A stretch of 64,000 bases of DNA, taken from positions 1,248,001-1,312,000 of the forward strand of contig CAXXVZ010000003.1 in NCBI GenBank assembly GCA_963678065.2. Direction: 5' to 3'. Both the position numbers and the translations under genes were made by a program. The notes under the pieces are model-generated. The model worked only from the letters and a program-made list of their open reading frames with translations, was not told the DNA's origin and did no database searches. Positions 37,135 through 61,824 of the stretch are shown one piece after another. The stretch's first letter is position 1; every line of letters begins with the position of its first letter. Origin of the DNA: Treponemataceae bacterium. Lineage in GTDB: Bacteria; Spirochaetota; Spirochaetia; Treponematales; Rectinemataceae.

Positions 37135-37152
37135 GATTTCCCCTTTTTCCGC

Positions 37153-37971: not shown

Positions 37972-37985
37972 GTTCCCTCCGCAGT

Positions 37986-38026
37986 AAAAGCCGCCCCAAA
38001 GGCTTTTTTTTAGTCTTTGGGGCGGC
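37986..38026 (-). terminator. Hairpin or terminator between the BMP gene and PNP
   Basis: GCCGCCCCAAAG (37990-38001) and CTTTGGGGCGGC (38015-38026) form a perfect 12-bp inverted repeat, followed by TTTT on the minus strand. Confidence 0.6.
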
Positions 38027-38101
38027 GTGATTCGTGTCGCCCTGGGGCGCAGATCCGGGCGATGCCCAGCGCTGATGCCGCCGGACACCACCCGATGTGG
38101 G

Positions 38102-39133: not shown

Positions 39134-39209
39134 TCTATGCCTCCTTGAACACTAAAAAATTCCCCCGTGGGGGATCTTGGCCGGTCTCCTACGAGCCGGC
39201 GCTGTCGCC

Positions 39210-42933: not shown

Positions 42934-42936
42934 CCC

Positions 42937-44978: not shown

Positions 44979-44989
44979 TCCGCCACCTC

Positions 44990-46135: not shown

Positions 46136-47142
46136 CAGAGGGCCTCGGCTTTGGCCGCGCTGTGGACCGCCTCGATGCGCTGGGCCGCGAGTTCCGAATC
46201 GTCGATGCCGAAGCTCATGCCGGTCAGACTCTCGACCTTCGAGACGAGAGCCGAGGCGTCGAGTCCGTATTCTCTCATCAAATACCCCTTGGAGCCGCCG
46301 TGGGCGAAGCTGTCCTGTAGGCCCATGCGGATAAGGCGCTTTCCGATGCCCTTTTCCGCGATAATCTCGGCCACTTCGGCGCCGAGACCGCCTATGACGC
46401 TGTGATTCTCCATTGTAATGACACCGTAGCGCGGCTTGCACAGAGCCTCCTCGAGGGCCGCGTCGCCGGAGGGCTTGTGCGTCGACACATGGAGGTGCTG
46501 GATCGAGAGGCCCCTTCTGCGCAGCGAGGCGGTGGCGCGCATCGCCTCCTCGGTGGAAATACCCGCCGTGACGATGCTGATGTCGGAGCCGACGGACAGA
46601 ACCCGCGACTTTCCCGCGACGAAGGGCTCTTCCCGGGGGAAGAGCCGGGGGAGCTCGCCGCGCAGCATGCGGATGTAGACCGGCCCTTGCGCATCGAGAA
46701 CGGGATCGAGGACGGTCTCGACCTCGGTGGCGTCTCCCACCTCGAAGACTGTCATGTTCGGAACCGCGCGCATGACGGCGATGTCCTCGATAGCCTGATG
46801 GGTCGCCCCCCCGGGAGTGGTTATCCCTGGAAGAAAGCCGAAAAACTTGACGGGCAGATTGGAATAGGCCACCGAGCTCACGATCTGATTGAGCGCCTGC
46901 CGGTAGATGAAAACCGCGAATGTGTGGATGAGCGGTATGAAGCCCTCGCGGGCGAGCCCCGCCGCGAAACTCACCATGTTCTGCTCGGCGATGCCCATGG
47001 AGAAAAAACGCTCCGGATAGGCTTCCTTGAACTCGGCTATCTCGGTGGAGCCCGTCAAGTCCGCGGAGAGCACGACGACGCGCGGCTTGTCCGCGGCCCA
47101 CGAGACGAGATTCCGCGCGTGCACCTTGCTGAGGATTTCCAC
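46135..47142 (-). CDS. Transketolase-like ThDP enzyme, C-terminal (pyrimidine-binding) subunit
   Basis: SADL..S, FSMGIAEQNM, FAVF..R, GGATHQAIED, GPVYIR, ENHSVIGGLG. Confidence 0.88.
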   Translation of the reverse strand: MEILSKVHARNLVSWAADKPRVVVLSADLTGSTEIAEFKEAYPERFFSMGIAEQNMVSFAAGLAREGFIPLIHTFAVFIYRQALNQIVSSVAYSNLPVKFFGFLPGITTPGGATHQAIEDIAVMRAVPNMTVFEVGDATEVETVLDPVLDAQGPVYIRMLRGELPRLFPREEPFVAGKSRVLSVGSDISIVTAGISTEEAMRATASLRRRGLSIQHLHVSTHKPSGDAALEEALCKPRYGVITMENHSVIGGLGAEVAEIIAEKGIGKRLIRMGLQDSFAHGGSKGYLMREYGLDASALVSKVESLTGMSFGIDDSELAAQRIEAVHSAAKAEAL

Positions 47143-47145
47143 GGT

Positions 47146-48093
47146 CTACTCCTTTTCCGCGCGGCGCTTCATCTCCGCCTCGTAAAACTTCGCATACTCC
47201 TTTCGCTCCCCGGACGAGGCGAAACGAAGGTAATGGAACTTGGGCCGGCGCGCGTCGAGGATGCCAAGGCCCCGACATGGGTCCGTGCGGCAGAGGACGA
47301 AGGTGGGCCTGCCATCGGGCTTTCGGCCGCAGGCGGCGTCGATGGCGAAGGGATCGTGCCCGTCCACGACAGAGGCGTGCGCGCCGAAGGATTCGATTCG
47401 CGCATCGAGGGGCTCGATCCCCATGACGTCCTTCATCTCGCCGTCGCACTGCTGACCGTTCACGTCGACGCAGACGATCATGTTGTCGAGTTTATAGAAG
47501 GACATCGTCTGAATGGCCTCCCATGTCTGCCCCTCCTGGAATTCGCCGTCGGAGAGGAAAACGACTACCCTACCCCTCTCGCGCTTCAGTTTTTTGGCGA
47601 GGGCTATCCCCGCAGCCTGGCTCAAGGTCTGCGCGAGAGCCCCGCCCATCATCTCGAAACCGGGAGAATGCTCGGCGCCTATCATCTCGACCGTGCTGCC
47701 GTCTTTATTGAACTGGGCGAGTCCCTCGGGAGCCATCCTGCCCGTCTCAACGAGGGTGGCGTAGAGAACGAGGGCGTAGTGGGCCGGACTCAGGAAGAAG
47801 CGGTCATCGTCCGCCTTTCCGGGGCCATTGTAGCCCGCACCTGAGAGGGACCGGCCGCGTCCCTTGCCTGGCACAGCGCTGAAAGGCGACGGAACCAGGG
47901 GAGCGATGCTTGGCCCCAGGCGCATGACCTTCAGATAGAGAGTGGAAAGGATCTCCGCCGCGGAGCAAGCCTGGCTCATGTAGCCACCGTCGTTGGCGAG
48001 CGTGTGCTCCAGCACTCGCAGCCTGATTCCGCGCGCGGCGCGCGAGACATCGTCGATCCATCCGCTGGAGGGCGCGCCCCCGGGAACTGCCAT
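47146..48093 (-). CDS. Transketolase-like ThDP enzyme, N-terminal (diphosphate-binding) subunit, divergent
   Basis: DRFFLSPAHYA, SDGEFQEGQTWEA...DVNGQQCDG ThDP motif, VDGHD. Confidence 0.85.
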   Translation of the reverse strand: MAVPGGAPSSGWIDDVSRAARGIRLRVLEHTLANDGGYMSQACSAAEILSTLYLKVMRLGPSIAPLVPSPFSAVPGKGRGRSLSGAGYNGPGKADDDRFFLSPAHYALVLYATLVETGRMAPEGLAQFNKDGSTVEMIGAEHSPGFEMMGGALAQTLSQAAGIALAKKLKRERGRVVVFLSDGEFQEGQTWEAIQTMSFYKLDNMIVCVDVNGQQCDGEMKDVMGIEPLDARIESFGAHASVVDGHDPFAIDAACGRKPDGRPTFVLCRTDPCRGLGILDARRPKFHYLRFASSGERKEYAKFYEAEMKRRAEKE

Positions 48094-48173
48094 GAATAGC
48101 CTCCGACCTCGGGGACCGCCTTAAAAATCAAGCGTTTTTCATCGGTCCGCCGGCTGAAGAATATGCTTACTGG

Positions 48174-48228
48174 ACTATATGACGGGATCGAAAATCTGTC
48201 AAATTGTTTATCACGGAACTTTTGTTCA
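48174..48228 (-). promoter_or_regulatory. Sigma70 promoter of the transketolase-RLP operon with an upstream GAAC-N4-GTTC palindrome
   Basis: Minus strand TTGACA (48197-48202)-N17-TATAGT (48174-48179); GAACTTTTGTTC at 48216-48227. Confidence 0.65.
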
Positions 48229-48879
48229 GTTCAGTCCGAGCACGATCCCGCAGACCGCCTCCACGGAGCAGCCCCACGCGATTATGCCGCCCCGATGTCC
48301 GGCCATACAGATCGCGCCCTCTTCGGGGCGGCCGTTCTCGACGAATATGCGCCGTATCTCCCCGGCCATGGCAGGCGTCCCGTACGCGACATTTTCGCGC
48401 GTGCGCCTTTGCGCGTCCGGCCAGCCCGACCAGAGAGCTTCGCTGTGCACATGCAGGACAGCGAGGATTTCCGTCGACAACTCATAGAACGCTGCGTGCG
48501 TCAGACTCTCCGAAGAAGCCCGGCAAAGGCCGGCGCAATCCAGTCGGTTCCCCCGGATATCCCAGTCGGAGACATATGAATACGCTTCGGGCCCCGGATC
48601 GATCAAATGCCCTGTCTGGCTCCCCGTGATCAGGAAACCCTCGTGATCCGGCCCATCGGCCTCCCCGCAGCCCGGTATGCACATCCGCTTGCTGAGATTC
48701 CCGTAACCGATGCCGTCCGGCCCGATGCCGATGAGCCCGCGACTCCACATCGCCCTGCGGACGGGGCGCAACTCCGCTATCATCTCTTCGGAGACGCATT
48801 CCTGCCTTCTCCAGACACACTCGAACTTGATGACCCCTTCGTTCGCGTTCCTCGCGGGGTCAGCGTAATCGGGCATCAT
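48226..48879 (-). CDS. Class II aldolase/adducin family protein
   Basis: GNLS.R, FLITGS, SSESLTH, VLHVHS, YGTP, GH; GGAGG RBS. Confidence 0.78.
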   Translation of the reverse strand: MMPDYADPARNANEGVIKFECVWRRQECVSEEMIAELRPVRRAMWSRGLIGIGPDGIGYGNLSKRMCIPGCGEADGPDHEGFLITGSQTGHLIDPGPEAYSYVSDWDIRGNRLDCAGLCRASSESLTHAAFYELSTEILAVLHVHSEALWSGWPDAQRRTRENVAYGTPAMAGEIRRIFVENGRPEEGAICMAGHRGGIIAWGCSVEAVCGIVLGLN

Positions 48880-49007
48880 CCCTCCACTGAACGTATGTTC
48901 ATTTGACAACATTAGAACACCATTTCATGATAACGGTCAATCCAGGGAAAAACACGATGGGCGATACTCTCGTCGTCCCACACACTATCCCCGGAAACGG
49001 AGGATTC

Positions 49008-50291
49008 ATGTTCAAGAAACAGCTTCCCATCGCCAAAGCGCTTGCCCTCATCATCTTCATCGGGTTCATCGCGCTGCCGGCCATGCAGGCCCAGGAAATG
49101 CCCCGGGTGGATCAGTCCATCGAGGCGATCCGTTCCGAGGAGTACGGGGCCTTCATCAACGAGGAATTCGGTGTCGCCTTCAAGCCGATCGTCGGAAAGG
49201 AGGACTTCCTCGCCGCCATCGCGATCTCGACCGGCGCCGCGGTCGGTTCGCTCGAGCCCGCCACGACAGCAGACGGGCCCTTCGACTCTCTGGCCGCTGT
49301 CTCCATCGCGCTCAAGGCCGCGAATATGAAGGAGCTCGCCTACAGCTATCCTGCGGAGAAAGTCGGGAAAAACCTCGCCCGCGCAGGGTTCGGCTCCCTG
49401 GGGCTCGACGCCCGCTCTGCGCAGGAGCTCGCCGCCGCCGTCGACACGGGACTGATTCCACCCGCGCTCTACGCCACATTCGATCCCAAGGCCGCACCGG
49501 GCGCGGACCTGGCGAACAGCCTCGTGGGCGGAGTCCTCTCCGCGAGAGGTCTCTACAAGCACTATATCGGCTTTGTGCGCGAGATCGACATCTACGCAAA
49601 GGTAAGCGACGCATTCAGGCGCTCCAGCATCATAAAAGCGCCGGAGCTTCGCGCCATCGTCGATTCGGCCCTCAGGCAGAACCTCGTGACGGGCTACAAC
49701 CTCAAAGATTCCCGCTACGACCCGCATTTCATCGACGCGCTGACCCTCACCTACGGACACTCGGACCTCGCACACGCGATCCAGCTCCTCGGACTCCTCA
49801 AGAGCGAGAGCATCGACGCCAAGGTTCAGCTCGAACCGAAGACCTCCGCCTTCGTCTTCATGAAGGAATGGGGCGATCCGGGTCCGTCGAACGAGGACTA
49901 CGAGGTTGTCCGGATCGAGAACGGCAACTATATCGAATACGCCAGGGAATACGACATATCTTTCGAGTTCAGGATGGTACAGGACAAAGAGCGCTTCCAA
50001 CCCCTCATCTACGCCTACGCGAAGAAGAACCAGAAGAATCAGGCCGGCCTGCTGATTCAATCCTGGTGGCAGCCGCTCTATCATTCCATGACGACCATGG
50101 ACGGCTACCTCGTAATCACGAACCAGCTCATCGCCAAAGGGCCCTACTACGCGCAGTCCTTCTCGCTCAACGAGCAATCGGCCGCGATAATTCAAGGCTT
50201 CAAGTCGATCGACCCGAGTCTGGCCGTCAAAACCTATCAGTTCTGGGTGGACGAGCCGTTCTTCCGCTATCTTCAGGGAATGGCAAAGTAG
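49008..50291 (+). CDS. Hypothetical exported protein
   Basis: 427-aa ORF with GGAGG RBS, host-like codon usage and a signal peptide ending MQAQ; upstream TTGACA-N17-CATGAT. Confidence 0.75.
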   Translation: MFKKQLPIAKALALIIFIGFIALPAMQAQEMPRVDQSIEAIRSEEYGAFINEEFGVAFKPIVGKEDFLAAIAISTGAAVGSLEPATTADGPFDSLAAVSIALKAANMKELAYSYPAEKVGKNLARAGFGSLGLDARSAQELAAAVDTGLIPPALYATFDPKAAPGADLANSLVGGVLSARGLYKHYIGFVREIDIYAKVSDAFRRSSIIKAPELRAIVDSALRQNLVTGYNLKDSRYDPHFIDALTLTYGHSDLAHAIQLLGLLKSESIDAKVQLEPKTSAFVFMKEWGDPGPSNEDYEVVRIENGNYIEYAREYDISFEFRMVQDKERFQPLIYAYAKKNQKNQAGLLIQSWWQPLYHSMTTMDGYLVITNQLIAKGPYYAQSFSLNEQSAAIIQGFKSIDPSLAVKTYQFWVDEPFFRYLQGMAK

Positions 50292-50438: not shown

Positions 50439-50945
50439 TTACCTCTCCGGAGCCTTGACCAGCCCGAGACCTTGCCGCACTGCACCGAGGTGCCAGGCCC
50501 CATGGGCTACGAGACCGAGAAGACCCGTCATGAATTCGGCATCGTCCCAGGACTTCTCGGAGGCGATGACTTTCCTGAAGGCCTCGTATTCTGCCCTGAG
50601 TCCCGACAGGAGAGCCTTCCATTCCGATTCGTTCACCGTCCTCGTGTCCCAGCTTCGCGCCCAGTTCGCGTCCGCGTAGGGATTCTCGCCCTTCGCGGCG
50701 CGGTTGGCGAGTTCGAGGGTGAAGCGGACGTGATTCGCGTGCGAAGCGGCGCTGATCGGGTCGCCCGCGCAAAGCGGCGCGCTCGCCCTGGCGGCGTCGA
50801 TGCCCTCGAGTGTTCCGAGAAGACCGCTGCGCGGATCATTGTCGGTGAACCAGGTACTCGTCGTCGCCGGCCCGACATGGGCCTCGTCGAAAAGGGCCAG
50901 AGCCGCATCGGCCACTACACGCTTCTCGATCGTCGTTCCACTCAT
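50439..50945 (-). CDS. DinB/YfiT family protein
   Basis: SAASHANH...W...HGAWHLGAVRQ His pattern; AGGAGG RBS. Confidence 0.7.
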   Translation of the reverse strand: MSGTTIEKRVVADAALALFDEAHVGPATTSTWFTDNDPRSGLLGTLEGIDAARASAPLCAGDPISAASHANHVRFTLELANRAAKGENPYADANWARSWDTRTVNESEWKALLSGLRAEYEAFRKVIASEKSWDDAEFMTGLLGLVAHGAWHLGAVRQGLGLVKAPER

Positions 50946-51131: not shown

Positions 51132-52043
51132 CTAGCGTGTTATAAGTTTCCCCGGAATTTTGTACATCTGCTGTGCCGGCTTGTCGCCCCTGAAACCAGC
51201 TTCGATGAGATCGGCGAGCTTCGCAGCCATGGCATCGAAATCCTGGGCGACCGTCGCGATGAAGGGACCCTGCTTAGCGATCTCGGCGCGGGCGAAGGCT
51301 GTACCGTCGATACCCACGACCTTGATCTCCTGCCTGCCGGCAGCATTGATCGCCTGCACCGCGCCCATCGCGGGCTCGTCCCATCCTGCCCAGATGCCTG
51401 CCATCGAGCCTTTGGCGGGATTTGCGGTCAGGATGTCCTGAGTAAGCTTGCGGGCGAAATCGAGAGGACCGGGCACTTCAATGTGTTTTTTGTCGACAAC
51501 CTTTATGCCGGGGATCGTGGCGAAATATGCAGCAGCAGCGGCAGCCCGCTCTCTGACTCCCGGATGGGGATCGTGCGTGAACATGTAGACCCTGCCCTTG
51601 TTCCCGATCGCGTCTGCGAGCGCCTTGGCGCTCGCCTTGCCGAGATCCGAGTTGTCGGAGGTCACGTTCAGGAGAACACCCTTCACGATGCCGGCGTCGA
51701 GGCCATAGACGGGGATGTTCACCTTCGCGGCGGCGTCGAGGCCGGCCGTCATCTGGGTGGGATCGCCCATGCCGAGCACGATGGCATCGACTTTCTGGAC
51801 GACGGCATCCTGGATCCGGCCGACGAGGAGGCCAAAATCGCCAGCCGTATCGGTGACGGTCACCTTCCAACCTCTCTTCTCGCCAATCTCCTTGAATTGA
51901 TCGATAACGTACTTGGTGGTCTCGTTAGCCATATAGGGCGTGACCACAGCCACCGTCTTCGCCTTTGGCGCGCAGAAACCGGCTGCGAGAACGACGAACG
52001 CAAAGGCCATCGTCAAGGCAGTCATCTTTCCAAACCTGCTCAT
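51132..52043 (-). CDS. Sugar ABC transporter substrate-binding protein (RbsB-like)
   Basis: Signal peptide; VTSDN, RER, WAGWDEPA.G, VGIDG, TVAQD. Confidence 0.88.
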   Translation of the reverse strand: MSRFGKMTALTMAFAFVVLAAGFCAPKAKTVAVVTPYMANETTKYVIDQFKEIGEKRGWKVTVTDTAGDFGLLVGRIQDAVVQKVDAIVLGMGDPTQMTAGLDAAAKVNIPVYGLDAGIVKGVLLNVTSDNSDLGKASAKALADAIGNKGRVYMFTHDPHPGVRERAAAAAAYFATIPGIKVVDKKHIEVPGPLDFARKLTQDILTANPAKGSMAGIWAGWDEPAMGAVQAINAAGRQEIKVVGIDGTAFARAEIAKQGPFIATVAQDFDAMAAKLADLIEAGFRGDKPAQQMYKIPGKLITR

Positions 52044-52110
52044 ACAACCCTCCTTCCATAATCGCCACCTCTACAGGCGGCGCAATAGCCTATTGGTGTC
52101 GTCCGGGGAC

Positions 52111-53619
52111 TCATGAAGATTCACTCGCCTTTGCGAGAGCCTCCCAAGTCGGCGCCAGAATCCGGTGAAGATCCTCGAAGGCGCCGGAAAGACCCCGATA
52201 CGTCCGGGACCACTCCAATTCGGGCGAATACCGCTTCGAAATACGGATGAAACCTGGTCCCGGGTCCCAGGAGGAGAACCAGCCGAGGGCTCTTCCTGCA
52301 AGAATGGCGGCGCCCCGCAGCCCGGCATCTTCGGGCTTCTCGGGCACGGCGACGGGACATTCGAATACCGACGCGATAATCCTGCACCACAATTCGGACC
52401 CTGCCCCGCCACCCACAAGGGTTACCTCATGTGCGTGAGCTCCTGATCCGCCCAAAGCCCTGAATGCATGGAGAAGCGAAAAGGCGACGCCCTCGAGGAC
52501 GGCCCGCGCGAGCTCAGCCCTCCCCGTTTCCCTTCCGATTCCTATGAAGCCGCCGCGTGCGCGCGGGGCGCGGAAGGGCATGCGTTCACCCGCAAGATAA
52601 GGAAGAAAGAGGAGCCCGGATGAGCCCGCAGCCGCAGACTCTGCCTCGCGGTTGAGGACGGAAAAGGCTTCGTCGCGCGAGGTTTCGGCGAGAAGGGCAT
52701 TCCGGAACCAGTCGTAGTTGCCCGCCGCTGTCGTGACCGCACCTATCATGATGAGATCGATTCCGTTCGGATGGCGCAGATTGAATGCGCCCAGAGCCGG
52801 ATCGACGGGAGGGCCATCGCTTGTCATCGCCACCCAGCCCGAAGTTCCAAGGTTTATGGAGAGGCGTCCCGGCACGCCGGCGCCTGAACCCAAGGTCGCG
52901 GTTGCGGCGTCGCCCGCCCCATGAATGACGGGAAGACCTTCGGGAAGTCCTGTGATGTGCGCCGCCTCGTGGGACAAAACACCAGCCACTTTATCCGCGC
53001 GCACAATCTCCGGAAAGAGATCGGTCCTGATGCCGAGACTCGCCATCAGGTCATCGTTCCATCGATTCTTGTCGAAAAGGAGGAGGCCCGTCGTCGAAGC
53101 AGTCGTGAGGTCGGTCGCGGACGCGCCGCAGAGGCGCCAGGCCAGATAATCATGAGCGCCGAGGAAGATCCACCGAGCTGAATCGAGCGTCATTTTCGCG
53201 TTGCGCGACATCCAAAGAAGCTTCGGAGCGAGCCCGCCCGCGTCCTGGGCATTCCGCGCCTCGGCTGCATGACGATCCGCGCCGTAGGTCAGCGCAATCT
53301 CCTGAGCCTCCGCCGCCGCGCGGGTATCCGAGTAGAGGATCGCCCTCGGCTGGGGCCCTGAGCCGACAATTATGAGATCCTGCATCTGGCCACTCAGGAC
53401 AAGAGCTTCGGGAACCAGATCGGAGGCACAGGCAATTTCCGAGAATGCGGAAACGCAGGCCGACCACCACTCCTCAGGGTCCTGCTCCATCTCGGCACCG
53501 TGGGCCCAGGTCCTGTATCCCCGCGAAGCCGAGGCGAACACATGCCCATCCCGGCCGATGAGGGCGACTTTTACGCCGGTAGTTCCGATGTCGGCAGCGA
53601 TCACGCATTCTACGCTCAT
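52111..53619 (-). CDS. FGGY-family sugar kinase (xylulokinase-like)
   Basis: DIGTTGVK, SGQMQ, YSDTRA, GAGDAA, NLGTSGW, PYLAGER, AVLEGVA, VGGGA.S. Confidence 0.88.
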   Translation of the reverse strand: MSVECVIAADIGTTGVKVALIGRDGHVFASASRGYRTWAHGAEMEQDPEEWWSACVSAFSEIACASDLVPEALVLSGQMQDLIIVGSGPQPRAILYSDTRAAAEAQEIALTYGADRHAAEARNAQDAGGLAPKLLWMSRNAKMTLDSARWIFLGAHDYLAWRLCGASATDLTTASTTGLLLFDKNRWNDDLMASLGIRTDLFPEIVRADKVAGVLSHEAAHITGLPEGLPVIHGAGDAATATLGSGAGVPGRLSINLGTSGWVAMTSDGPPVDPALGAFNLRHPNGIDLIMIGAVTTAAGNYDWFRNALLAETSRDEAFSVLNREAESAAAGSSGLLFLPYLAGERMPFRAPRARGGFIGIGRETGRAELARAVLEGVAFSLLHAFRALGGSGAHAHEVTLVGGGAGSELWCRIIASVFECPVAVPEKPEDAGLRGAAILAGRALGWFSSWDPGPGFIRISKRYSPELEWSRTYRGLSGAFEDLHRILAPTWEALAKASESS

Positions 53620-54401
53620 GTTTTCCTCCCCGAGGCCGCAGCCCGGAGCGAAGCCACGTACCGCTTCATCCGCTCGCTGTCTTTGGCCGCTTCGACAAGA
53701 GCCGTTCCGACGATGGCGCCATCGGCGCCGAAGCGCCTTAAGTCATCGATATCTTTGGGCGTGTTGACTCCGAACCCCACGGCGACAGGCAGGCCCTCGA
53801 CGGCTTCTTTCACCGTGGCGATCCGGGAGCCAAGTTCAGATCCAAAGGATCGTCTATCGCCTGTCTTGCCCCCGTGGCTCGGGAGGTAGATGAACCCGGC
53901 CGCATCGCCTGCGAGGAATGCAAGGGTCTCTCTGGACATGTCAGCTGCGAAACCGATCGGCTCAAGGCCCGCCTCCCGCGACGCGCGCGCAATCGCCAAT
54001 CGGTTTTTTTCCTGAATGCCGACGACAAGGATGCCCGCGAACCCCGCGGCAGCCAGGGCTCGCGCAGCGCTCTGCCCGCCAAGTTCGTCCCAGGTTTTCG
54101 CGTACATCATCGCAATAAGCGGCCGGCCCTTTGCCACGGCCGGCGCGGCGAGATGCAAGGCCATGCTCGAGTCGAGTCCGGCGCGGCGAAGGTAACCCAT
54201 GGCGTCGCGAATCACCTTTCCATCCAGGAATGGATCGTCGATGGGGAATCCTATTTCGAGAATATCGAGGCCAGCCTCGAAAGCGAGGTCTGCGACGGTC
54301 GGGAATTCCTCAGGCGAAGGATACCCCGCAGGAAGGTAACCGATGAGTGCGATCCGCCCTTCCTGGCGGGTCTTCGCGAAAACATCCCCGATCGCGCCCA
54401 T
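53616..54401 (-). CDS. trpA: Tryptophan synthase alpha-subunit paralogue (stand-alone)
   Basis: GYLPAGYP, LEIGFP.DDPFLDG, MMY, GFIYL.S.GG.TG, VGFGV, DGAIVGTALV; no trpB or other trp gene in the window. Confidence 0.8.
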   Translation of the reverse strand: MGAIGDVFAKTRQEGRIALIGYLPAGYPSPEEFPTVADLAFEAGLDILEIGFPIDDPFLDGKVIRDAMGYLRRAGLDSSMALHLAAPAVAKGRPLIAMMYAKTWDELGGQSAARALAAAGFAGILVVGIQEKNRLAIARASREAGLEPIGFAADMSRETLAFLAGDAAGFIYLPSHGGKTGDRRSFGSELGSRIATVKEAVEGLPVAVGFGVNTPKDIDDLRRFGADGAIVGTALVEAAKDSERMKRYVASLRAAASGRKT

Positions 54402-54403
54402 GA

Positions 54404-55378
54404 TCAGCCCCGTTTCCTTCCGCTGAGCCCCGAAAGGAGCACGGCGCCGACGATGATGACCCCGGTGAGAATCTGCTGAATATAAGAATTGACGCCGAGG
54501 ATGTTCATGCCGTTTCCGAGCACGCCCATGATCAGAACCCCGAGAAGAGTGCCGCCAACGTGCGGTTCACCCTCGCGGAATGCCGTTGCGCCGAGGAAGA
54601 CAGCCGCAGCCGCATTGAGCATGAAGGGATTGCCTGCCTGGGGATGGGCCGAGAACAGTCGACTTGTAAGCACGATACCAGCGATCGCGGCGCCGAGTCC
54701 CGAGATCATGAAGCCGCCGAGCCTGACGAGTCTGACATTGATGCCGGCGAGACGGGTTGCCTCAGGGTTGCCTCCGATGGCATAGAGTTTCCGGCCCAAA
54801 AGAGTCCTCTCCATGATCGTCCACACGATGGCCACGATTATCAACATGATAATGACTGCTATCGGAACAGGGCCGACGCTCCCCTGACCAATGAACCTGA
54901 ATGACTCGGGGATGCCATTGAAGAGTGTCGACCCGCCGGTAGACAGGAGAGCAAGCCCGCCGATGCTTGTCATCGTTGCCAGGGTCGCCACAAATGCGGA
55001 GAGGTTTCCATAGGCCACGAGCGCGCCATTCAGCATACCGACAAGAATTCCGACCCCGGACCCTGCCGCGAGGCCGAGTATGACGCTGCCGCTTGCAGTC
55101 ATGGTCGAGACGCACGCGACCCCCGCCAGACTCGCAATCGCTCCTATCGAGAGGTCGAAATCGCCCGTTGCCATGACCAGAGTAACTGCCGCCGCCGCGA
55201 TCGCGAGGGTCGCCGCCTGTTCCACGACATTCTTGAGATTTCCTATAGTGGGAAAGACGTCGGGCTTGAGCGCGGCGAAGACCGCGCAGAGGACGACAAA
55301 TCCGCCGAGTGTTCCCCATTTCCTGAGCAGATCCGCGAAACGCACGCGGCCATCTGATCCTGCGATGGAATTCGCCAT
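54404..55378 (-). CDS. Monosaccharide ABC transporter permease
   Basis: GDFDLSIG, AIGGNPEATRLAGI, AAVFLG. Confidence 0.88.
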   Translation of the reverse strand: MANSIAGSDGRVRFADLLRKWGTLGGFVVLCAVFAALKPDVFPTIGNLKNVVEQAATLAIAAAAVTLVMATGDFDLSIGAIASLAGVACVSTMTASGSVILGLAAGSGVGILVGMLNGALVAYGNLSAFVATLATMTSIGGLALLSTGGSTLFNGIPESFRFIGQGSVGPVPIAVIIMLIIVAIVWTIMERTLLGRKLYAIGGNPEATRLAGINVRLVRLGGFMISGLGAAIAGIVLTSRLFSAHPQAGNPFMLNAAAAVFLGATAFREGEPHVGGTLLGVLIMGVLGNGMNILGVNSYIQQILTGVIIVGAVLLSGLSGRKRG

Positions 55379-55379
55379 G

Positions 55380-56891
55380 TCATTCACTCCCTTTTCCGTA
55401 GCATTGCGCAAGGACAGTCTCCTGATCGAGGCCACGCGCATCGAGAATCGCCTCGACGCCGCCCTCCCTCATTACCATCACTCTGTCCGCGAGACCCAGA
55501 ACCTCGCCGAGATCCGAGGATGCGAGGATGATCCCCGCGCCCCGGGCCGCCATGTCCCTTACGATCTTGTAGATCTCGTAACGCGCGCCCACATCGACAC
55601 CCCGGGTCGGTTCATCGAGGAGGAGCACTTTTGCGTCGCGGGGGATCCACTTCGCGAAGACCACCTTCTGCTGATTCCCTCCCGATAATTCTCCGACTGC
55701 CTGTCGCATCGATGACGCCTTGAGCCTGACAGACTCCGCCGAAGCCTTTGCCGTTTCCAATTCCTTGCGACGATCGACGAAGACGGCCCAGCGCGACAGA
55801 CTCCGCAAGTTAGGCAGGGCGATGTTCTCCGCTATTCCTCTGCGAAGGACCAGGCCATGCTGCCTTCTCTCTTCGGGAACGAGGAGGACACCGGCATGTA
55901 TGGCAGCCAGGGGAGAAGAAGGCGAATAACGTTTCCCCAAGAGGCTTATCTCGCCACCACGCGGCCGGATCGCGCCTCCCAGAGCTTTGAGCAAGGAGGA
56001 GCGACCCGAGCCGACGAGTCCCGCCACTCCCAGTATCTCGCCTGCCCGAAGCGTGAAAGAAACGGGGCGGCCTTTCCCGCGGTCGAGGCCCTCGACACAG
56101 AGGATGTCCTCTGCCGGCGATGATTTCGACTCCGGGAAGTTGTCCACGAGGCTCCTTCCGATCATAAGCTTTATGAGCGAGCGCGGATCGGTATCGGCGA
56201 TGTCAGTGACTGCGACCGTTTCCCCGTCCTTCATGACGGTCACTCGATCGCAGAGTTCGAATATCTCGTCGAGCCGGTGGGAGACATAGAGGATGGTCTT
56301 GCCTCGGGCCCTGAGCTTTTCGATAACTGCGAACAGGTTACGGATCTCATGATCGGTCAGAGAGGCCGTCGGTTCGTCCATCACGTAGAGACGGGCTTCG
56401 TCTGCGAAGGCGCGGGCTATAGCGATCATGGACTGTTGCCCGCGCGACAACCTCGACACCGGTTGACGAAGTGGAAGTTCTACGTCGAGTTGGGCAAGGC
56501 AGGCCGCGGAGCGCCGTTCGAGCTCCCGTCGGTCGATGAGACCAAGGGCGTTCGTCGGATAGCGTCTGCCGAGGAAGATGTTTTCGCTGGCATTGAAATA
56601 CGGGACCAGGTTGAGCTCTTGATGAATGAAGCTGAAACCCAGGCGAAGGGCATCTGAGCCTGACGCAATCTCCACCTTCCTCCCGTCGAGGACGATTTTG
56701 CCTTCGTCGGGCCTCTGTATTCCCGCGATGATCTTGATCAAGGTCGATTTGCCCGCGCCGTTTTCGCCGACGAGGGCGTGGACTTCGCCCGGCTGAAGTG
56801 AAAGCGATCCTCCCTTGAGCGCATGAACTCCTCCGAAGCTTTTTCGGATACCGGAGATCTCGAGCATGGGGGGGACGGTGTCTTTTGCCAT
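55380..56891 (-). CDS. Monosaccharide ABC transporter ATP-binding protein
   Basis: GENGAGKST, MDEPTASL, LSGGNQQKV, DEPTRGVD. Confidence 0.92.
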   Translation of the reverse strand: MAKDTVPPMLEISGIRKSFGGVHALKGGSLSLQPGEVHALVGENGAGKSTLIKIIAGIQRPDEGKIVLDGRKVEIASGSDALRLGFSFIHQELNLVPYFNASENIFLGRRYPTNALGLIDRRELERRSAACLAQLDVELPLRQPVSRLSRGQQSMIAIARAFADEARLYVMDEPTASLTDHEIRNLFAVIEKLRARGKTILYVSHRLDEIFELCDRVTVMKDGETVAVTDIADTDPRSLIKLMIGRSLVDNFPESKSSPAEDILCVEGLDRGKGRPVSFTLRAGEILGVAGLVGSGRSSLLKALGGAIRPRGGEISLLGKRYSPSSPLAAIHAGVLLVPEERRQHGLVLRRGIAENIALPNLRSLSRWAVFVDRRKELETAKASAESVRLKASSMRQAVGELSGGNQQKVVFAKWIPRDAKVLLLDEPTRGVDVGARYEIYKIVRDMAARGAGIILASSDLGEVLGLADRVMVMREGGVEAILDARGLDQETVLAQCYGKGSE

Positions 56892-56892
56892 C

Positions 56893-57693
56893 TCATTCCT
56901 CCTCAAGGAGTGTCCCGACGAGCGGCTCGGCCCCGCCCTTCCTGAAATTGAAATCGTAACTGTGTCGTTTGCCAATTCGCTCTGTCGTCATGAAGAAAGA
57001 ATCCCCTGCGATGATGGCTTCGTCGTACATGAGCGCCTCGCCCTCGCCCGAACGGCTCAACCTGACAGAGAGCATCGCGGGATTGCCGGCCGCACGTCCG
57101 AGAACTGCGGCGTCAGCCTCATCGAGCAGAATCGGGACGAGGAGCTCGCGGGTCATCGCGATCGCTACGCCGCAGGTCGCCGAGATCTGGTCATAGAGCG
57201 ACAGCGCCGGGTCGTATGATTCGAGAAACGAGGCAAGCCGCGTCGCCAAGAAGGAAGACTGGAGGACGATAGGAACGCCGGCGAGTTTTCTGAGGCGCTT
57301 GATCCTGGGCAGGAGCGTCCCTGCGGGATACCCGAGAGCCTGTGCGGCCTGACTCGAAGCGACGAGGGAAGGTACTTCAAGGACGACAGTCTCGACTCGC
57401 TGATTCCGCGCCCCCATCTCTCGATCAAAACCGTATAGCCGCTCCCTTTCGAATTCGCCGACGCAGGGGGCCGTAACGAACATGCCGATACCATGGTCGG
57501 TCCTGATCAGTTCTTCCTCTTCAAGAAACTCGAGGGCACGCCGCACGGTCATAACCGTCGTCGAGAATTCCGCGGCCAGCTCCCGCTGGGTTGGGATTTT
57601 GACCCCGTCCGCCCATTGGCCGCTCGTTATCCTTGACCTGATTTCCGTGGCGATAGCGATATAGAGCGGCAATCCTTTGTTTCCCGAGATCAT
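56893..57693 (-). CDS. GntR family regulator (HutC/UTRA subfamily)
   Basis: PLY..IA, KIPTQRELAAEF.TTVMTVRRAL..L, GIGMFV; C-terminal UTRA-like domain. Confidence 0.88.
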   Translation of the reverse strand: MISGNKGLPLYIAIATEIRSRITSGQWADGVKIPTQRELAAEFSTTVMTVRRALEFLEEEELIRTDHGIGMFVTAPCVGEFERERLYGFDREMGARNQRVETVVLEVPSLVASSQAAQALGYPAGTLLPRIKRLRKLAGVPIVLQSSFLATRLASFLESYDPALSLYDQISATCGVAIAMTRELLVPILLDEADAAVLGRAAGNPAMLSVRLSRSGEGEALMYDEAIIAGDSFFMTTERIGKRHSYDFNFRKGGAEPLVGTLLEEE

Positions 57694-57701
57694 CAGCTAC
57701 C

Positions 57702-57766
57702 CTCTAAGTGTTATAGTGTTCTATAACACTTAGAGCAAGTCTAAATGCGAAATCGAAATCTGTCAA
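57702..57766 (-). promoter_or_regulatory. Sigma70 promoter (TTGACA-N17-TAGACT) followed by a perfect 34-bp palindrome (GntR operator)
   Basis: CTCTAAGTGTTATAG-TGTT-CTATAACACTTAGAG at 57702-57735; -10 at 57738-57743, -35 at 57761-57766. Confidence 0.75.
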
Positions 57767-57859: not shown

Positions 57860-59110
57860 TTATTGGGATGCTTTCTCAAATGCCAGAACCGCATTATGAC
57901 CGCCGAAACCGAAGCCGTTCGACAGGACTCGACACAGATCGACATTTCGGGCTTTCAAGGGAACATAGTCGAGATCGCAATCCGGATCGGCCTCAATGAG
58001 GTTCAATGTCGGAGGAACCTGCCCGTACCGGATCGCCTGTACGGAAAGAATCGCCTCGATTCCTCCGGCCGCGCCGAAAAGGTGCCCTGTCGCGCCTTTG
58101 GTGGAGCTGATCAGTGGAATCCGATTCCCTTTGCCCGCAAAAAGTTTAATGGCCTTTGTTTCTGCTATATCTCCTACAGGTGTTCCGGTACCGTGGGCGT
58201 TGATGTAGTCGACGCTACCCAACTTCCAGTCCGCCATTCTCGCGGCCTGGCTCATGGCTGCCGCGGCCCCTCTTCCTTCGGGATCGGGAGAGGTCAGATG
58301 AAATGCATCGGCCGTCGAGCCATATCCCACAACTTCCGCCAAGATCACTGCTCCGCGCGCTCTGGCTGTTTCCCACTCCTCCAATATCAGAACGCCAGCC
58401 CCTTCTCCCATGACAAATCCGTCTCTGCCTAATGCGAAAGGCGCACATGCCGCCGCTGGATCCTCATTTCGCGTGGACATCGCGCGCATGCTATTGAACC
58501 CCGAGAAGGCGACAGGCAAAACGGGCGCCTCAGCCCCACCAGCGACAGCCATGTCGACCCGACTGTCCCTGATCGCCAGGAAAGCCTCGCCTATAGCGTT
58601 GTTGCCCGTTGCGCAGGCGCTGACAGGCGCCAGGCAAGGGCCGCGAGCCCCTATGGCCATCGAAACGAGGCCCGCGCCCATGTTCGCTATCATCATGGGA
58701 ATCGTGAAGGGACTGGTCCGCCATCCCTCCCCTCTGCCAAGCGAATCCTGAGCCCGCAACAGCGTCTCGGCACCTCCGATTCCCGTACCCAGCCAGACGC
58801 CGATCCTTTCGCCGTCGATCCCGGCTTGACCTGCCTTCGCATGCTCCCAGGCCTGCAGCGAGGCCCACACCGCAAAGCGGGCGAAGCGGTCCCAATTCTT
58901 TGATTCTTTCCGATCCAGATACCGGTCTTCGGGAAAATCGACGACGGTAGAGGCTATTCGGGTAGGGAAGCGTGAAAAATCGGCCCGGTCGATTGTCGTA
59001 ATCCCTGACCTACCGGATACGACTGAATCCCAAAAGCTATCGGCGTCCTTTCCCAGAGCATGGATAACGCCCATTCCAGTTATGGCGACACGGCGATGGG
59101 ATGTGTTCAT
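57860..59110 (-). CDS. fabF: Beta-ketoacyl-ACP synthase II
   Basis: RRVAITGMG, SACATG, RDGFVMGEG, INAHGTGT, KGATGHLFGAAG, SNGFGFGGHN. Confidence 0.92.
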   Translation of the reverse strand: MNTSHRRVAITGMGVIHALGKDADSFWDSVVSGRSGITTIDRADFSRFPTRIASTVVDFPEDRYLDRKESKNWDRFARFAVWASLQAWEHAKAGQAGIDGERIGVWLGTGIGGAETLLRAQDSLGRGEGWRTSPFTIPMMIANMGAGLVSMAIGARGPCLAPVSACATGNNAIGEAFLAIRDSRVDMAVAGGAEAPVLPVAFSGFNSMRAMSTRNEDPAAACAPFALGRDGFVMGEGAGVLILEEWETARARGAVILAEVVGYGSTADAFHLTSPDPEGRGAAAAMSQAARMADWKLGSVDYINAHGTGTPVGDIAETKAIKLFAGKGNRIPLISSTKGATGHLFGAAGGIEAILSVQAIRYGQVPPTLNLIEADPDCDLDYVPLKARNVDLCRVLSNGFGFGGHNAVLAFEKASQ

Positions 59111-59121
59111 CGGTTACTCCT

Positions 59122-59724
59122 TTATTGCGTCGAGCTGATCAGCAATCCGTCGATAACACTATTCAACACACGTACTACTGCCTGTAATGGATCAGAGGTT
59201 CCGTGAAGCTTCGCGAGCATGATTCCCCCTTCCAGAGAAGCCAGGAAAAAGAAGGACAAGGTCTCGGCATCCTCATCTCTCTTGAGCCGCCCCGACTTCT
59301 GCGCTTGACCTATTTGCGTCCTGATCAGAGCGCGAAGCCTCTTTGCAGCTTCGGCAGCCTCCTCGCGCATGAAAGGAATCGCATCGTCGGATTCAATGGC
59401 GGCGTTCAGTATAGGGCAGCCACCGGCGACTACACTTCCGGCAGCGATAGACAGACTGGCATTGAGTAGCAGGCGGAGTCGTTCTACGGGATCATCCTTT
59501 CCCTCTATCGCCTTTGTAAAGAAGGAGGATATTGAAGAGACGTTGAAACGAAAGGCCTCGATCGCCAACTCTTCCTTTGACCCGAAGTGATTGTACAGTC
59601 CGCCTTTTTGCATCCCCGTCGCCTGCATGATCGCCGATACAGGCGTGGAGCCGTATCCGAACTGGTTAAATACCTCACCGGCTTGCCGAACTATGCGCTG
59701 GTGCGTCTTTTCTCCTTTGTTCAT
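59122..59724 (-). CDS. TetR/AcrR family regulator (LmrA/YxaF/NemR-like)
   Basis: GYGST..SAIM.ATG..KGGLYNHFGSKEEL HTH; GGCP..N. Confidence 0.9.
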   Translation of the reverse strand: MNKGEKTHQRIVRQAGEVFNQFGYGSTPVSAIMQATGMQKGGLYNHFGSKEELAIEAFRFNVSSISSFFTKAIEGKDDPVERLRLLLNASLSIAAGSVVAGGCPILNAAIESDDAIPFMREEAAEAAKRLRALIRTQIGQAQKSGRLKRDEDAETLSFFFLASLEGGIMLAKLHGTSDPLQAVVRVLNSVIDGLLISSTQ

Positions 59725-59734
59725 ATCAGCATTT

Positions 59735-59760
59735 AAGACCGATCGGTCTTTTTTTGTCAA
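59735..59760 (-). promoter_or_regulatory. TetR operator palindrome directly downstream of a TTGACA -35 element
   Basis: Perfect AAGACCGATCGGTCTT (59735-59750); TTGACA on the minus strand at 59755-59760. Confidence 0.7.
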
Positions 59761-60107: not shown

Positions 60108-60503
60108 ATGTCGAGACCAGACAAGAGCGTATCGGAACCAAACTTTTTCACATGCGGGCACTGCGGACGCGCGGTGCCGCCACCAGACTCGGGCTCACGC
60201 CAGAGGAATCATTGCCCGGCCTGCCTCAGAAGCTCCCACAGGGACATCCGGGTCGGCGACCGCCAGAGCGGTTGTCGCGGGATAATGGACCCGATAGGGA
60301 TATGGGTCAAGGAAGATGGCGAATGGGCCATCATCCATCGCTGCAGGAAATGCGGTTTTGTACGGACAAACCGGGTGGCGGCGGACGACAATGAAGTACT
60401 GCTTCTGACCATGGCGGCGCTGCCGCTGAGCCGCCTGCCCTTCCCCGGGGGCAAGACCCTGGAACTGCTGCAGGATCGCGAAGTCGCCGGAGGCAGGGCA
60501 TGA
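60108..60503 (+). CDS. RNHCP domain protein
   Basis: FTCGHCG, RNHCPACLRSSH.D..GDR.SGC.G.M, IIHRCRKCG, NRVAADD. Confidence 0.9.
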   Translation: MSRPDKSVSEPNFFTCGHCGRAVPPPDSGSRQRNHCPACLRSSHRDIRVGDRQSGCRGIMDPIGIWVKEDGEWAIIHRCRKCGFVRTNRVAADDNEVLLLTMAALPLSRLPFPGGKTLELLQDREVAGGRA

Positions 60504-61594
60504 GCATCGCGGATTGGGGATGGGACCAGGCCTTCGAGTCCAGTGCCCAGGCGACAATGTGCGAAGGCTATGGGATCCGGCGCGTGATTGGCCAGGGCCG
60601 GGGCCTGTATGTCCTGACCGACGGAGACTCCACGCGGCAGGCAGTTCTGTCCGGAGCCTTCAGCTATAGGGCGGCGCTGCCGTCGGATTATCCGGTCACC
60701 GGCGATTTCGTCGCCTGCCGCGAAGAGGGAGAAGCCTGGGTCATCGAGGCCCTGCTCCCGCGCCGGAGCCTCCTTTCCCGCAAGGCCGCCGGGGAAAAGG
60801 AAGAGAGACAGGCCCTCGCGGCCAATGTCGACACGGTGTTTCTGGCCTTCGCTCTCGATGGCGGTCGAGGCTTCCTGCCCCGCCTCCTGGAACGCCTGCT
60901 GACCTTGGTGAACGACAGCGGGGCCGCGCCTGCGATCCTGCTGAACAAGGCGGATCTGGCCGAGAACCCTGGCCAGTACATCGAAGAGGCCGAGGCTGCG
61001 GCTCCGGGGGTACCGATATTCCTCGTATCGGCGCGGACCGGACAGGGGCTGGAGCAGCTCCGGAGCCACCTCGAGCCGGGCAAGACCTATTCTTTCCTCG
61101 GGAAATCCGGGGTAGGCAAGTCCTCGCTGATCAACGCCCTCTTCGGCAAGGACATCATGAAGACCTCCGAGATCCGGGATCAGGACAAGCGCGGTCGCCA
61201 TACGACCTCCAGCCGCGACCTCTTTCTCCTGCCGGGCGGCGCCCTCCTCATGGACAACCCCGGCCTGCGGGAGGCGGCCCTCTGGGTCGACGAGAGGAGC
61301 GTGGACGAGAGCTTCCCGGAGATATCTGCCCTGGCCGCCGAATGCCGGTTCAGGGACTGCGGCCATTCGGGCGAGCCGGGCTGCGCCGTGCAGGAAGCGC
61401 TGGTGGATGGCCGCCTGGACTATCGCCGCTATGAAAGCTACCTGGAGTACCGGCGGGAAGCGCGCTATCACCAGCTGATGAGCAACGGGAACGCGCAACG
61501 CGTCGAACGTATCCGCTGGAAGGCCATATCGAAGAGTGTAAGGAACATGGCCAAGGGGAGGGATGATCCGGTGCCTCGGGATAGTGCCGAATGA
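60500..61594 (+). CDS. rsgA: Ribosome small subunit-dependent GTPase A (circularly permuted GTPase), probably a paralogue
   Basis: PVTGDFV, AANVD, LNKADL, GKSGVGKSSLIN, GRHTT, DNPGLRE, CRFRDC.H..EPGCAV. Confidence 0.92.
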   Translation: MSIADWGWDQAFESSAQATMCEGYGIRRVIGQGRGLYVLTDGDSTRQAVLSGAFSYRAALPSDYPVTGDFVACREEGEAWVIEALLPRRSLLSRKAAGEKEERQALAANVDTVFLAFALDGGRGFLPRLLERLLTLVNDSGAAPAILLNKADLAENPGQYIEEAEAAAPGVPIFLVSARTGQGLEQLRSHLEPGKTYSFLGKSGVGKSSLINALFGKDIMKTSEIRDQDKRGRHTTSSRDLFLLPGGALLMDNPGLREAALWVDERSVDESFPEISALAAECRFRDCGHSGEPGCAVQEALVDGRLDYRRYESYLEYRREARYHQLMSNGNAQRVERIRWKAISKSVRNMAKGRDDPVPRDSAE

Positions 61595-61822
61595 CTCCTG
61601 CAAAGTGCTCGCAAGGCACGGGGATGGAGTCAGGACGGAGCGGGCAAGCTGGTAGGACTCCTCCCCAAGACGATCTCGGCCCTCGAGAATCATCCGGCCT
61701 CCGCGACCATCGACAGCCTCATGAAACTCCTCTCGGCACTCGAGCTGGAGCTCGTGCTCATGCCCAAAGAGCGTGGCGAATCCCCGAACCAGAAGGCCTA
61801 CCCTTCCAATGAGGAGTGGTGA
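61595..61822 (+). pseudogene. hipB: HipB-like XRE antitoxin lacking a canonical start, in frame directly after the rsgA stop
   Basis: Manual translation: LLQSARKARGWSQDGAGKLVGLLPKTISALENHPASATIDSLMKLLSALELELVLMPKERGESPNQKAYPSNEEW*. It has the XRE helix-turn-helix and terminal Trp of HipB and lies upstream of hipA. Confidence 0.75.
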
Positions 61823-61824
61823 CC

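Follow-up and report, generated by a model that had tools for sequence, protein, structure and literature searches.

A TrpA paralogue in a conserved import and kinase cassette of a Treponemataceae bacterium: a candidate catabolic lyase

A six-gene cassette with an extra TrpA-like protein

The DNA analyzed here (the window) is a stretch of 64,000 nucleotides (nt) from the genome of a Treponemataceae bacterium. Six densely spaced open reading frames (ORFs) on its minus strand span positions 51132-57693. They encode a GntR-family regulator, the ATPase and the permease of a sugar-type ATP-binding cassette (ABC) importer, a paralogue of the tryptophan synthase alpha subunit TrpA (P0001), an FGGY-family carbohydrate kinase, and a solute-binding protein (Table 1). 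P0001 is the subject of this work. Gene identities were assigned by Pfam and NCBIfam profile searches. A previous sequence-only reading of this DNA had proposed the same six genes in this span, and the ORF list and both profile collections agreed with it.

The Pfam family PF00290 matched the genome twice. The stronger copy (192.5 bits) was located on another contig, C2, directly after trpB (580.1 bits), with overlapping trpB and trpA ORFs and with trpE and trpC just upstream. This canonical TrpA carries the usual SDP, YLNP, and PDCP motifs. TrpB-family matches were obtained at C2:272337, C3:671470, and C3:1413369; the window covers C3:1248001-1312000, and the TrpB profile search of the genome gave no match within it. 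Because a complete trp operon with adjacent trpB and trpA is present elsewhere, the TrpA-like protein of the window was confirmed as an extra, TrpB-less paralogue. The lack of a nearby trpB had been noted from the sequence and holds across the whole window, and the separate canonical trpBA pair that the same reading had suggested looking for is the trpE..C..B-A operon on C2. The possibility that P0001 was the only TrpA of the genome, which would have spoken for an ordinary role, is not borne out, since PF00290 finds the second copy beside trpB.

A stand-alone enzyme of the TrpB2 type is encoded as well (G000:C3:671290-672540; locus L004:1261-2655; 707 bits on NF009057), and a nitrilase-like gene comes after it. 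TrpB2 was present in 27/36 other genomes of the family, compared with 1/36 for the cassette. Co-occurrence with TrpB2 was considered as a hint at an indole product and was discarded as uninformative, as TrpB2 occurs in 27/36 genomes regardless of the cassette.

Within the cassette, the genes are tightly packed. The ATPase ORF is listed as 55380-56975, and its likely start is the ATG at 56891, 1 nt past the gntR stop; likewise, the permease ORF is listed as 54404-55441, with a likely start at the ATG at 55378, 1 nt past the ATPase stop. The TrpA-like gene starts (54401) 2 nt past the permease stop (54404), and its stop overlaps the kinase ATG (53619) by 4 nt. Both of these junctions read exactly as had been claimed. 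A 67-nt gap separates the kinase gene from the binding-protein gene. In the regulator, the GntR domain covers residues 11-73 and the UTRA domain covers residues 96-233, which is the architecture of the HutC subfamily. The ATPase resembles AraG, RbsA, and XylG and scored under all NCBIfam equivalog cut-offs, and the permease reached 213 bits against the RbsC model (cut-off, 398).

Table 1. Genes of the cassette and features of its upstream region
Feature	Position in window	Strand	Size and evidence
GntR-family regulator with UTRA effector domain (HutC subfamily)	56893..57693	-	266 amino acids (aa); Pfam GntR 60.4 bits, UTRA 75.3 bits
Sugar-type ABC ATPase	55380..56891	-	503 aa; ABC_tran 183.3 bits, 2 stretches
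RbsC/AraH-like permease	54404..55378	-	324 aa; BPD_transp_2 123.3 bits
TrpA paralogue P0001	53616..54401	-	261 aa; PF00290 (Trp_syntA) 137.3 bits, E 5.6e-40
FGGY-family carbohydrate kinase, XylB-like	52111..53619	-	502 aa; FGGY_N 144.2 bits, FGGY_C 111.1 bits
RbsB-like solute-binding protein	51132..52043	-	303 aa; Peripla_BP_4 121 bits
Sigma-70-like promoter, TTGACA-17 nt-TAGACT	57738..57766	-	Upstream of gntR; consensus scan, 10/12 matches
Candidate operator, perfect 15+15-nt inverted repeat CTCTAAGTGTTATAG-AACA-CTATAACACTTAGAG	57702..57735	-	Read from sequence

A separate TrpA clade with a conserved gene linkage

P0001 belongs to the TrpA family by profile (TIGR00262 gave 122.9 bits, over its cut-off of 102.35; PF00290 far above its cut-off of 27) and by fold. 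Its AlphaFold model was confident (predicted local distance difference test score [pLDDT], 93; predicted template modeling score [pTM], 0.92). The model formed a (beta/alpha)8 barrel that matched Salmonella TrpA (1cw2_A) with a template modeling (TM) score of 0.90 and a root mean square deviation of 1.9 A. The fold matches ranked 1 to 50 were all TrpA or BX1 (TM 0.85-0.91; Salmonella and Mycobacterium TrpA and maize BX1 among them), and a search of the ESM Atlas returned TrpA clusters only. The identity of P0001 to solved TrpAs was 25-32%.

A word-index search yielded one protein at 97% identity, a group at 45-56%, and a group at 36-42%, with ordinary TrpAs below these at approximately 135 bits or less. 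A clade profile built from 23 members was then scanned over 1.84 billion representatives and gave a graded list that included further members. In a FastTree tree of 127 sampled rows, P0001 fell in a 56-row clade (support, 98) nested in a 68-row clade (support, 99; stem, 0.4), and the TrpA of Escherichia coli and the canonical TrpA of the same genome lay outside. In a quick IQ-TREE run of 83 rows, a branch with a Shimodaira-Hasegawa-like approximate likelihood ratio test (SH-aLRT) value of 99 set 38 clade rows apart; the groups were taken from FastTree, and the run serves as a check of method and not as an independent definition of the clade. Thus, the P0001 clade is separate from canonical TrpA, and the separation is well supported. 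The clade comprises approximately 40 clusters at 50% identity and is old and diverse.

Two candidate members were rejected: L089 (39% identity) carries the canonical SDP, YAN, and GFGVS signature, and L092 (37% identity) lies in what is, judging by ORF sizes, a trpF-B-A-like arrangement and was also classed as canonical. Other TrpA fusions were found among the representatives, namely P0126 (630 aa), P0174 (424 aa), P0192 (473 aa), and P0243 (686 aa), their types being tandem double TrpA, NUDIX-TrpA, TrpF-TrpA, and TrpB-TrpA. By the TrpA part only, P0126, P0174, and P0192 grouped with the canonical rows; P0243 was outside the tree sample.

When P0001 was aligned with E. coli TrpA, Glu49 (in LEIG), Asp60 (in LDG), the loop-6 G-K-T-G, the GFG, and the G-T were kept, and three segments were altered (YAN to YAK, ADVP to VGIQ, and CPPN to AA-D). 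Both the kept and the altered elements had been picked out in the sequence-only reading and are visible in this alignment. For the clade as a whole, 60 clade rows and 54 canonical rows were tabulated in E. coli TrpA numbering; the canonical rows were the best scorers against the clade profile rather than a random sample of TrpA. Glu49 and Tyr175 were present in 60/60 clade rows and Asp60 and Thr183 in 58/60 (the other two rows having Glu at position 60). The phosphate-loop residues Gly184, Gly211, Phe212, Gly213, and Gly234 were each found in 60/60. Pocket and other positions were also strongly kept, including Ile64 (60/60, against 43/54 canonical rows), Tyr22 and Leu127 (59/60 each), Ile or Val at 232 (59/60), Tyr102 (58/60), and Met100 (56/60).

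A different picture emerged at the positions that are near-invariant in TrpB-partnered TrpA. Ser55 dropped from 53/54 canonical rows to 6/60 clade rows, Asp56 from 51/54 to 26/60, Pro57 from 54/54 to 40/60, and Asp130 from 54/54 to 14/60; Asn104, present in 53/54 canonical rows, was outside the five commonest residues of the clade. P0001 itself has Asp55, Asp56, Pro57, Lys104, and Gly130. Relaxation was also seen at Pro132, at Pro156, and at the aromatic position 54. The conservation of Ser55-Asp56-Pro57, Asn104, and Asp130 that marks the canonical TrpB-partnered enzyme is therefore lacking in the clade, which goes against the TrpB-bound role that the sequence-only reading had named as refuting it. 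We take these five residues to serve TrpB contact or loop closure.

The clade has also acquired residues of its own. These include Leu, Met, or Phe at position 59 (58/60; Ala in 47/54 canonical rows), Tyr or Phe at 58 (38/60), a newly fixed Gly or Ala at 152, Phe153 (58/60; canonical rows have Leu in 38/54 and Phe in 6/54), and Thr235 (58/60; Ser in 46/54). Polar positions changed as well: Arg65 was found in 43/60 (Gln in 49/54 canonical rows), Gln or Pro at 177 in 60/60 (Gln177 in 39/60), and Arg, Asn, His, or Gln at 215 in 53/60 (Ser in 39/54). In our reading, selection appears to have acted on the catalytic apparatus, the glycerol-phosphate site, and the hydrophobic pocket and not on the features that we take to be TrpB contacts. 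In TrpA, as described in passages of a study of these enzymes (PMC11574760), Glu49 is both proton donor and acceptor, Asp60 takes the indole N1 hydrogen, and catalysis needs the closure of loops 2 and 6; the same passages place Leu59 in genuine maize lyases acting on indole-3-glycerol phosphate (IGP).

Seven loci, the window included, were read for gene context. Four of the others (L006, from a Treponemataceae metagenome-assembled genome, and L086, L087, and L088) were available with flanks from representative genomes and metagenome contigs, and two (L167 and L170) came from the same-family genome G422. By tblastn, the permease, TrpA-like, and FGGY genes were found in the same order in 6/6 other clade loci, and gntR and the binding-protein gene were present in 3/3 and 4/4, respectively, of the loci reaching far enough. 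In every locus examined, the genes at the junctions either overlapped by 4 nt or were 2-12 nt apart. Relative to the window, identities were 36-56% for the TrpA paralogue, 44-56% for the kinase, 66-83% for the permease (six other loci), and 56-69% for the ATPase. In L006, L086, and L088, the cassette opens with an orthologue of the regulator (39-57% identity). No cassette protein was better conserved than the binding protein (68-81%). The gene flanks were unrelated between loci; since they differ completely, the cassette is considered self-contained.

The kinase linkage went as far as a natural fusion. P0143, a protein of 759 aa, has a TrpA-like part at residues 13-247 followed by FGGY_N/FGGY_C at residues 267-704, in the order of the separate genes, and its halves were 32% (TrpA-like) and 40% (kinase) identical to the proteins of the window. 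Its cluster at 90% identity has 26 members on many contigs, with Sphaerochaeta records among them. A word-index search with P0001 for longer proteins had given no fused form, which is weak evidence; the full hidden Markov model scan then gave P0143. Across 401 phylum genomes, the kinase of the window matched the kinase half of P0143 by far the best (369 bits, against at most 254 bits for any other). The fusion itself was not found in 400 sampled genomes of the phylum, where the kinase part gave matches of approximately 30% identity only. Thus, the neighborhood comparison that the sequence-only reading had recommended shows the tie to the importer and the FGGY kinase kept in 6/6 other clade loci, in addition to the fusion, and an absence of this linkage from other genomes, which that reading had named as telling against it, was not what we observed.

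The cassette appears only rarely. A search for the TrpA paralogue (E <= 1e-30, over the stretches of these genomes available to it) detected it in 0/400 other sampled genomes of the phylum, and it was present in 1/36 other genomes of the family. In that genome, G422, two permease/TrpA-like/FGGY stretches lie on separate short contigs, C243 (L167) and C441 (L170), both approximately 56% identical to the window; they may represent two strains rather than a duplication, the assembly having 500 contigs and approximately 7% contamination. In L086, an inosine-uridine nucleoside hydrolase (L086:3511-4536, minus strand) and a transporter of the energy-coupling factor type (CbiQ and two ATPases; L086:30-2500, minus strand) precede the cassette divergently; found in 1/4 loci, this arrangement may be due to chance. 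None of the datasets listed for the 6.5-kb stretch was RNA, and the DNA datasets were labeled as groundwater, sludge, and biofilm metagenomes; no habitat is claimed from them.

Upstream of gntR, a sigma-70-like promoter was identified by a consensus scan that gave matches at chance level (2 found, 2.0 expected), so that its position is suggestive only. A perfect inverted repeat begins 3 nt past the -10 hexamer and stops 9 nt short of the gntR ATG. Related TATAG/TCTAGA palindromes occupied the same position upstream of gntR in 3/3 loci reaching that far (L006, L086, and L088), and a TTGAC-type hexamer upstream of the palindrome was also present in all three. We read the operon as probably autoregulated and under repressor control, with the palindrome as a candidate operator of the GntR/HutC type, to which the regulator is predicted to bind.

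Other genes of the window were examined for ties to the cassette. Immediately upstream are a beta-ketoacyl synthase gene and a TetR regulator gene (57860-59760, minus strand), followed by genes for an RsgA GTPase (60500-61594, plus strand) and a HipA-like kinase (Couple_hipA and HipA_C; 61816-63153, plus strand). None of these neighbors was tied to the cassette in the other loci examined. On the other side, the ORFs at 48903-50291 (plus strand) and 50439-50945 (minus strand) showed coding-like GC content by codon position (third-position GC of 0.80 and 0.76, respectively) and had no Pfam or NCBIfam match. A strong AAGGAGG site belongs to the latter ORF (168 aa), which is situated 186 nt downstream from the binding-protein gene; in L006 it was not found beside the cassette, a histidine-kinase gene taking its place. 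A second catabolic or salvage cluster occupies 35866-48912 (minus strand). It encodes an amidohydrolase, a PNP_UDP_1 phosphorylase, a nucleoside-binding protein of the Bmp/PnrA type, an ABC ATPase, and a permease. Its other genes encode an IF-2B/MtnA-like isomerase, a SorC-type regulator, a class II aldolase-like protein, and a transketolase split into separate genes for the N and C halves. Its content resembles a pathway that takes in 5'-deoxy- or methylthio-nucleosides and ends in an aldolase and/or transketolase step.

Proposed function and its alternatives

The partners of P0001 offer hints about the substrate. The kinase is a member of the FGGY family that scored 302.8 bits against the XylB model (TIGR01312), under the xylulokinase equivalog cut-off of 380.25. 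It was 28-32% identical to E. coli XylB with the catalytic Asp233 aligned, and its substrate-side motifs were changed (GQMHG to GQMQD and WNDGR to YSDTR); among solved structures, an annotated xylulokinase came closest (216 bits). The binding protein, which starts with a signal or lipoprotein-like segment ending in Cys, reached 77.9 bits against the RbsB model (NF007936; cut-off, 337). Of the residues that we take to contact ribose in RbsB, Asp89, Asp215, and Gln235 were aligned, and Phe15, Phe16, Arg90, and Asn190 were replaced (Asn190 by Trp); an invariant THDPHPG segment was added. Because both proteins fall under their equivalog cut-offs, with motifs and contacts replaced, xylulose or ribose is not expected as the ligand, and the partners point to a small, hydroxyl-rich ligand that would be neither of the two. 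A fold search with the model of the binding protein, tried for a hint at the ligand, returned generic monosaccharide and polyol binders only (<=28% identity).

With moderate confidence, we propose that P0001 is a TrpA-type retro-aldol lyase in an inducible import and phosphorylation module and releases glyceraldehyde 3-phosphate. In this scheme, the GntR/UTRA repressor would occupy the palindrome just past the -10 hexamer as long as substrate is lacking. The RbsB-like protein with the ABC permease and ATPase would, by family membership, import a polyol-bearing compound, R-CH(OH)-CH(OH)-CH2OH, and the XylB-like FGGY kinase would phosphorylate its terminal hydroxyl; the kinase product would be the likely inducer. 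The TrpA paralogue would then cleave the R-C1' bond by means of Glu49/Asp60, Thr183, and the Gly-rich loops, as its conserved residues suggest, and yield R-H and glyceraldehyde 3-phosphate, the latter entering glycolysis. A retained ancestral partial reaction would explain why two enzymes suffice, why lyase and kinase are translationally coupled or even fused, and why the residues for glyceraldehyde 3-phosphate binding and acid/base catalysis are invariant.

As for the leaving group within the lyase scheme, a (hetero)aromatic one, indole-3-glycerol included, is tentatively put forward, and a sugar-derived enol seems slightly less probable. Indole, or another ring with an N-H or O-H that can be C-protonated, would be the simplest choice for R, because the hydrophobic pocket and Asp60 are kept and Asp60 of TrpA takes the indole N1 hydrogen; the imported compound would then be a (hetero)aryl-glycerol such as indole-3-glycerol. 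The catabolic module imagined in the sequence-only reading is thus upheld in part: the extra TrpB-less paralogue, the conserved link to importer and kinase, and the catalytic residues speak for it, and its aryl- or heteroaryl-polyol or C-glycoside-like substrate is a candidate only. The sugar-phosphate aldolase or epimerase that the same reading had offered as an alternative stays under consideration, because the binding protein and the kinase look like ordinary monosaccharide or polyol types.

Several observations weigh against the lyase proposal. The transporter and the XylB-like kinase are of plain monosaccharide or polyol types, and the sequence and fold neighbors of the binding protein, at <=28% identity, are binders of ribose, allose, arabinose, xylitol, threitol, and methylthioribose. 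The new polar residues near the site (Arg65, Gln177, and residue 215) could serve a polar substrate instead. No genes for aromatic compounds flank any locus examined, and we know of no abundant natural aryl-glycerol substrate. The borrowed grouping of the IQ-TREE run and the non-random choice of canonical rows, both noted above, also count on this side.

The sugar-type transporter and the new polar residues would favor a sugar-derived leaving group or else a different activity. We consider the latter a less probable account: the paralogue may be a proton-transfer enzyme, either an aldose-ketose isomerase or an epimerase, with a short ketose phosphate from the kinase as its substrate. On chemical grounds only, an imported tetrulose or pentulose could be handled in this manner, for example by conversion of erythrulose 4-phosphate to erythrose 4-phosphate, with Glu49 as the base on the carbon at the place of indole C3/C1'. 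Kinase and isomerase would then constitute a complete two-step entry to the pentose-phosphate pathway, in keeping with a self-contained cassette of only two enzymes and with binding-protein and kinase families that normally take plain sugars or polyols. The larger residues at 58, 59, and 153, together with Arg65, Gln177, and residue 215, could shrink and polarize the indole pocket, and triosephosphate isomerase, in which a Glu base runs enediol chemistry without a metal, provides a chemical precedent. However, we know of no change of reaction type within the TrpA family, and a carboxylate at position 60 (Asp in 58/60) would fit a cationic N-H intermediate better than an enediolate. The pocket is, in addition, conserved no less strongly than that of canonical TrpA (Ile64, Leu127, and Phe212), which would be unexpected if it touched nothing. 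Two of the substitutions invoked are also seen elsewhere: Phe153 occurs in 6/54 canonical rows and Leu59 occurs, according to passages of PMC11574760, in genuine maize IGP lyases.

A special case counted inside the lyase proposal is a true IGP lyase acting in salvage, in which imported indole-3-glycerol would be converted to IGP and then to indole and glyceraldehyde 3-phosphate, with the indole taken by the resident TrpB or TrpB2. The residues of the IGP site are kept or conservatively replaced (F22Y, L100M, and S235T, variants also seen in canonical rows), and the genome does encode both TrpB and a TrpB2-type enzyme. Nonetheless, we regard this case as quite unlikely: with a full trp operon, salvage is not needed for growth, TrpB2 and the cassette (27/36 against 1/36 family genomes) show no specific co-occurrence, and the clade is old and diverse with fixed substitutions of its own. 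Indole-3-glycerol is, to our knowledge, not an environmental nutrient. Finally, P0001 scores above the trpA equivalog cut-off (122.9 against 102.35) and its relatives are named "tryptophan synthase subunit alpha" in public sources, as would be expected of a redundant TrpA of the ordinary kind, partnered with TrpB and placed by chance among sugar genes, or of a decaying copy. The linkage in 6/6 loci down to 36% identity, the fusion to a kinase, the separate clade, and the loss of canonical near-invariant residues make such a redundant partner of TrpB highly improbable, and the intact frame, the kept catalytic residues, and the confident model do not suit decay.

If the lyase proposal holds for aromatic substrates, fermenting bacteria may, as a tentative extension, use the kinase and the repurposed TrpA to remove the three-carbon side chain of imported (hetero)aryl-glycerols in the form of glyceraldehyde 3-phosphate, the ring staying intact. 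Candidate substrates would be indole-3-glycerol or, on chemical grounds only, lignin-derived arylglycerols. Tryptophan-synthase-alpha chemistry would then be put to catabolic use for the first time, and aromatic polyols would yield energy by a new route that needs no oxygen; a lyase function as such would be a clear example of how a biosynthetic lyase can be recruited to catabolism. A clade wired to import and a kinase, and fused to the latter in Sphaerochaeta, points to a nutrient that nobody has named. As the cassette is small and self-contained, with six genes, one repressor, and a candidate operator, the question is directly testable.

Comparison with known systems

TrpA is a textbook enzyme with one reaction in one pathway, apart from its plant offshoots BX1/IGL. 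Canonical TrpA (Salmonella 1cw2/1qop and Thermus 1ujp) shares with P0001 the family, the fold, Glu49/Asp60, Thr183, and the phosphate loops. It differs in its adjacency to trpB, whereas P0001 and its relatives stood, in every locus read, beside genes for an ABC importer and an FGGY kinase. Leu59, Arg65, Phe153, Gln/Pro177, and Thr235 are particular to the clade. By context, phylogeny, and near-invariant residues, P0001 is thus placed outside the canonical TrpB-partnered group. In public annotation, members of the clade appear as "tryptophan synthase subunit alpha" and the fusion also as "xylulokinase"; when such names count as trpA, pathway reconstructions are misled.

For the partners, the nearest named families are those of E. 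coli XylB and RbsB, although both proteins are under the respective equivalog cut-offs. A term search of the FGGY family paper PMC3245297 gave no mention of tryptophan or TrpA. In full-text literature searches (main texts), no description of the operon or of an arylglycerol kinase/lyase route was found.

The lsr system for autoinducer-2 uses the LsrACDB importer, the FGGY kinase LsrK, and LsrF, a triosephosphate isomerase (TIM)-barrel enzyme that cleaves the phosphorylated product, all under a repressor. The logic is similar to that of the cassette, with an RbsABC-like importer, an FGGY kinase, a phosphate-binding barrel enzyme, and a repressor. The two systems are not orthologous: the scores were 133.6 bits for LsrK (cut-off, 528) and 373.5 bits for LsrA (cut-off, 586), the binding protein had no match to an LsrB model, and LsrF belongs to another barrel family than TrpA.

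A parallel to the proposed lyase is offered by the plant enzymes BX1 and IGL (PDB 1rd5 and 1tjr), TrpA paralogues that work free of TrpB and release their product in free form. BX1 was among both the sequence matches (85.8 bits) and the fold matches (TM 0.85-0.86) of P0001. The plant lyases arose from plant tryptophan synthase alpha and are 63% identical to ZmTrpA, as stated in passages of PMC11574760. BX1 and IGL use biosynthetic IGP, whereas the P0001 clade is bacterial, has a separate origin, and stands behind an importer and a kinase.

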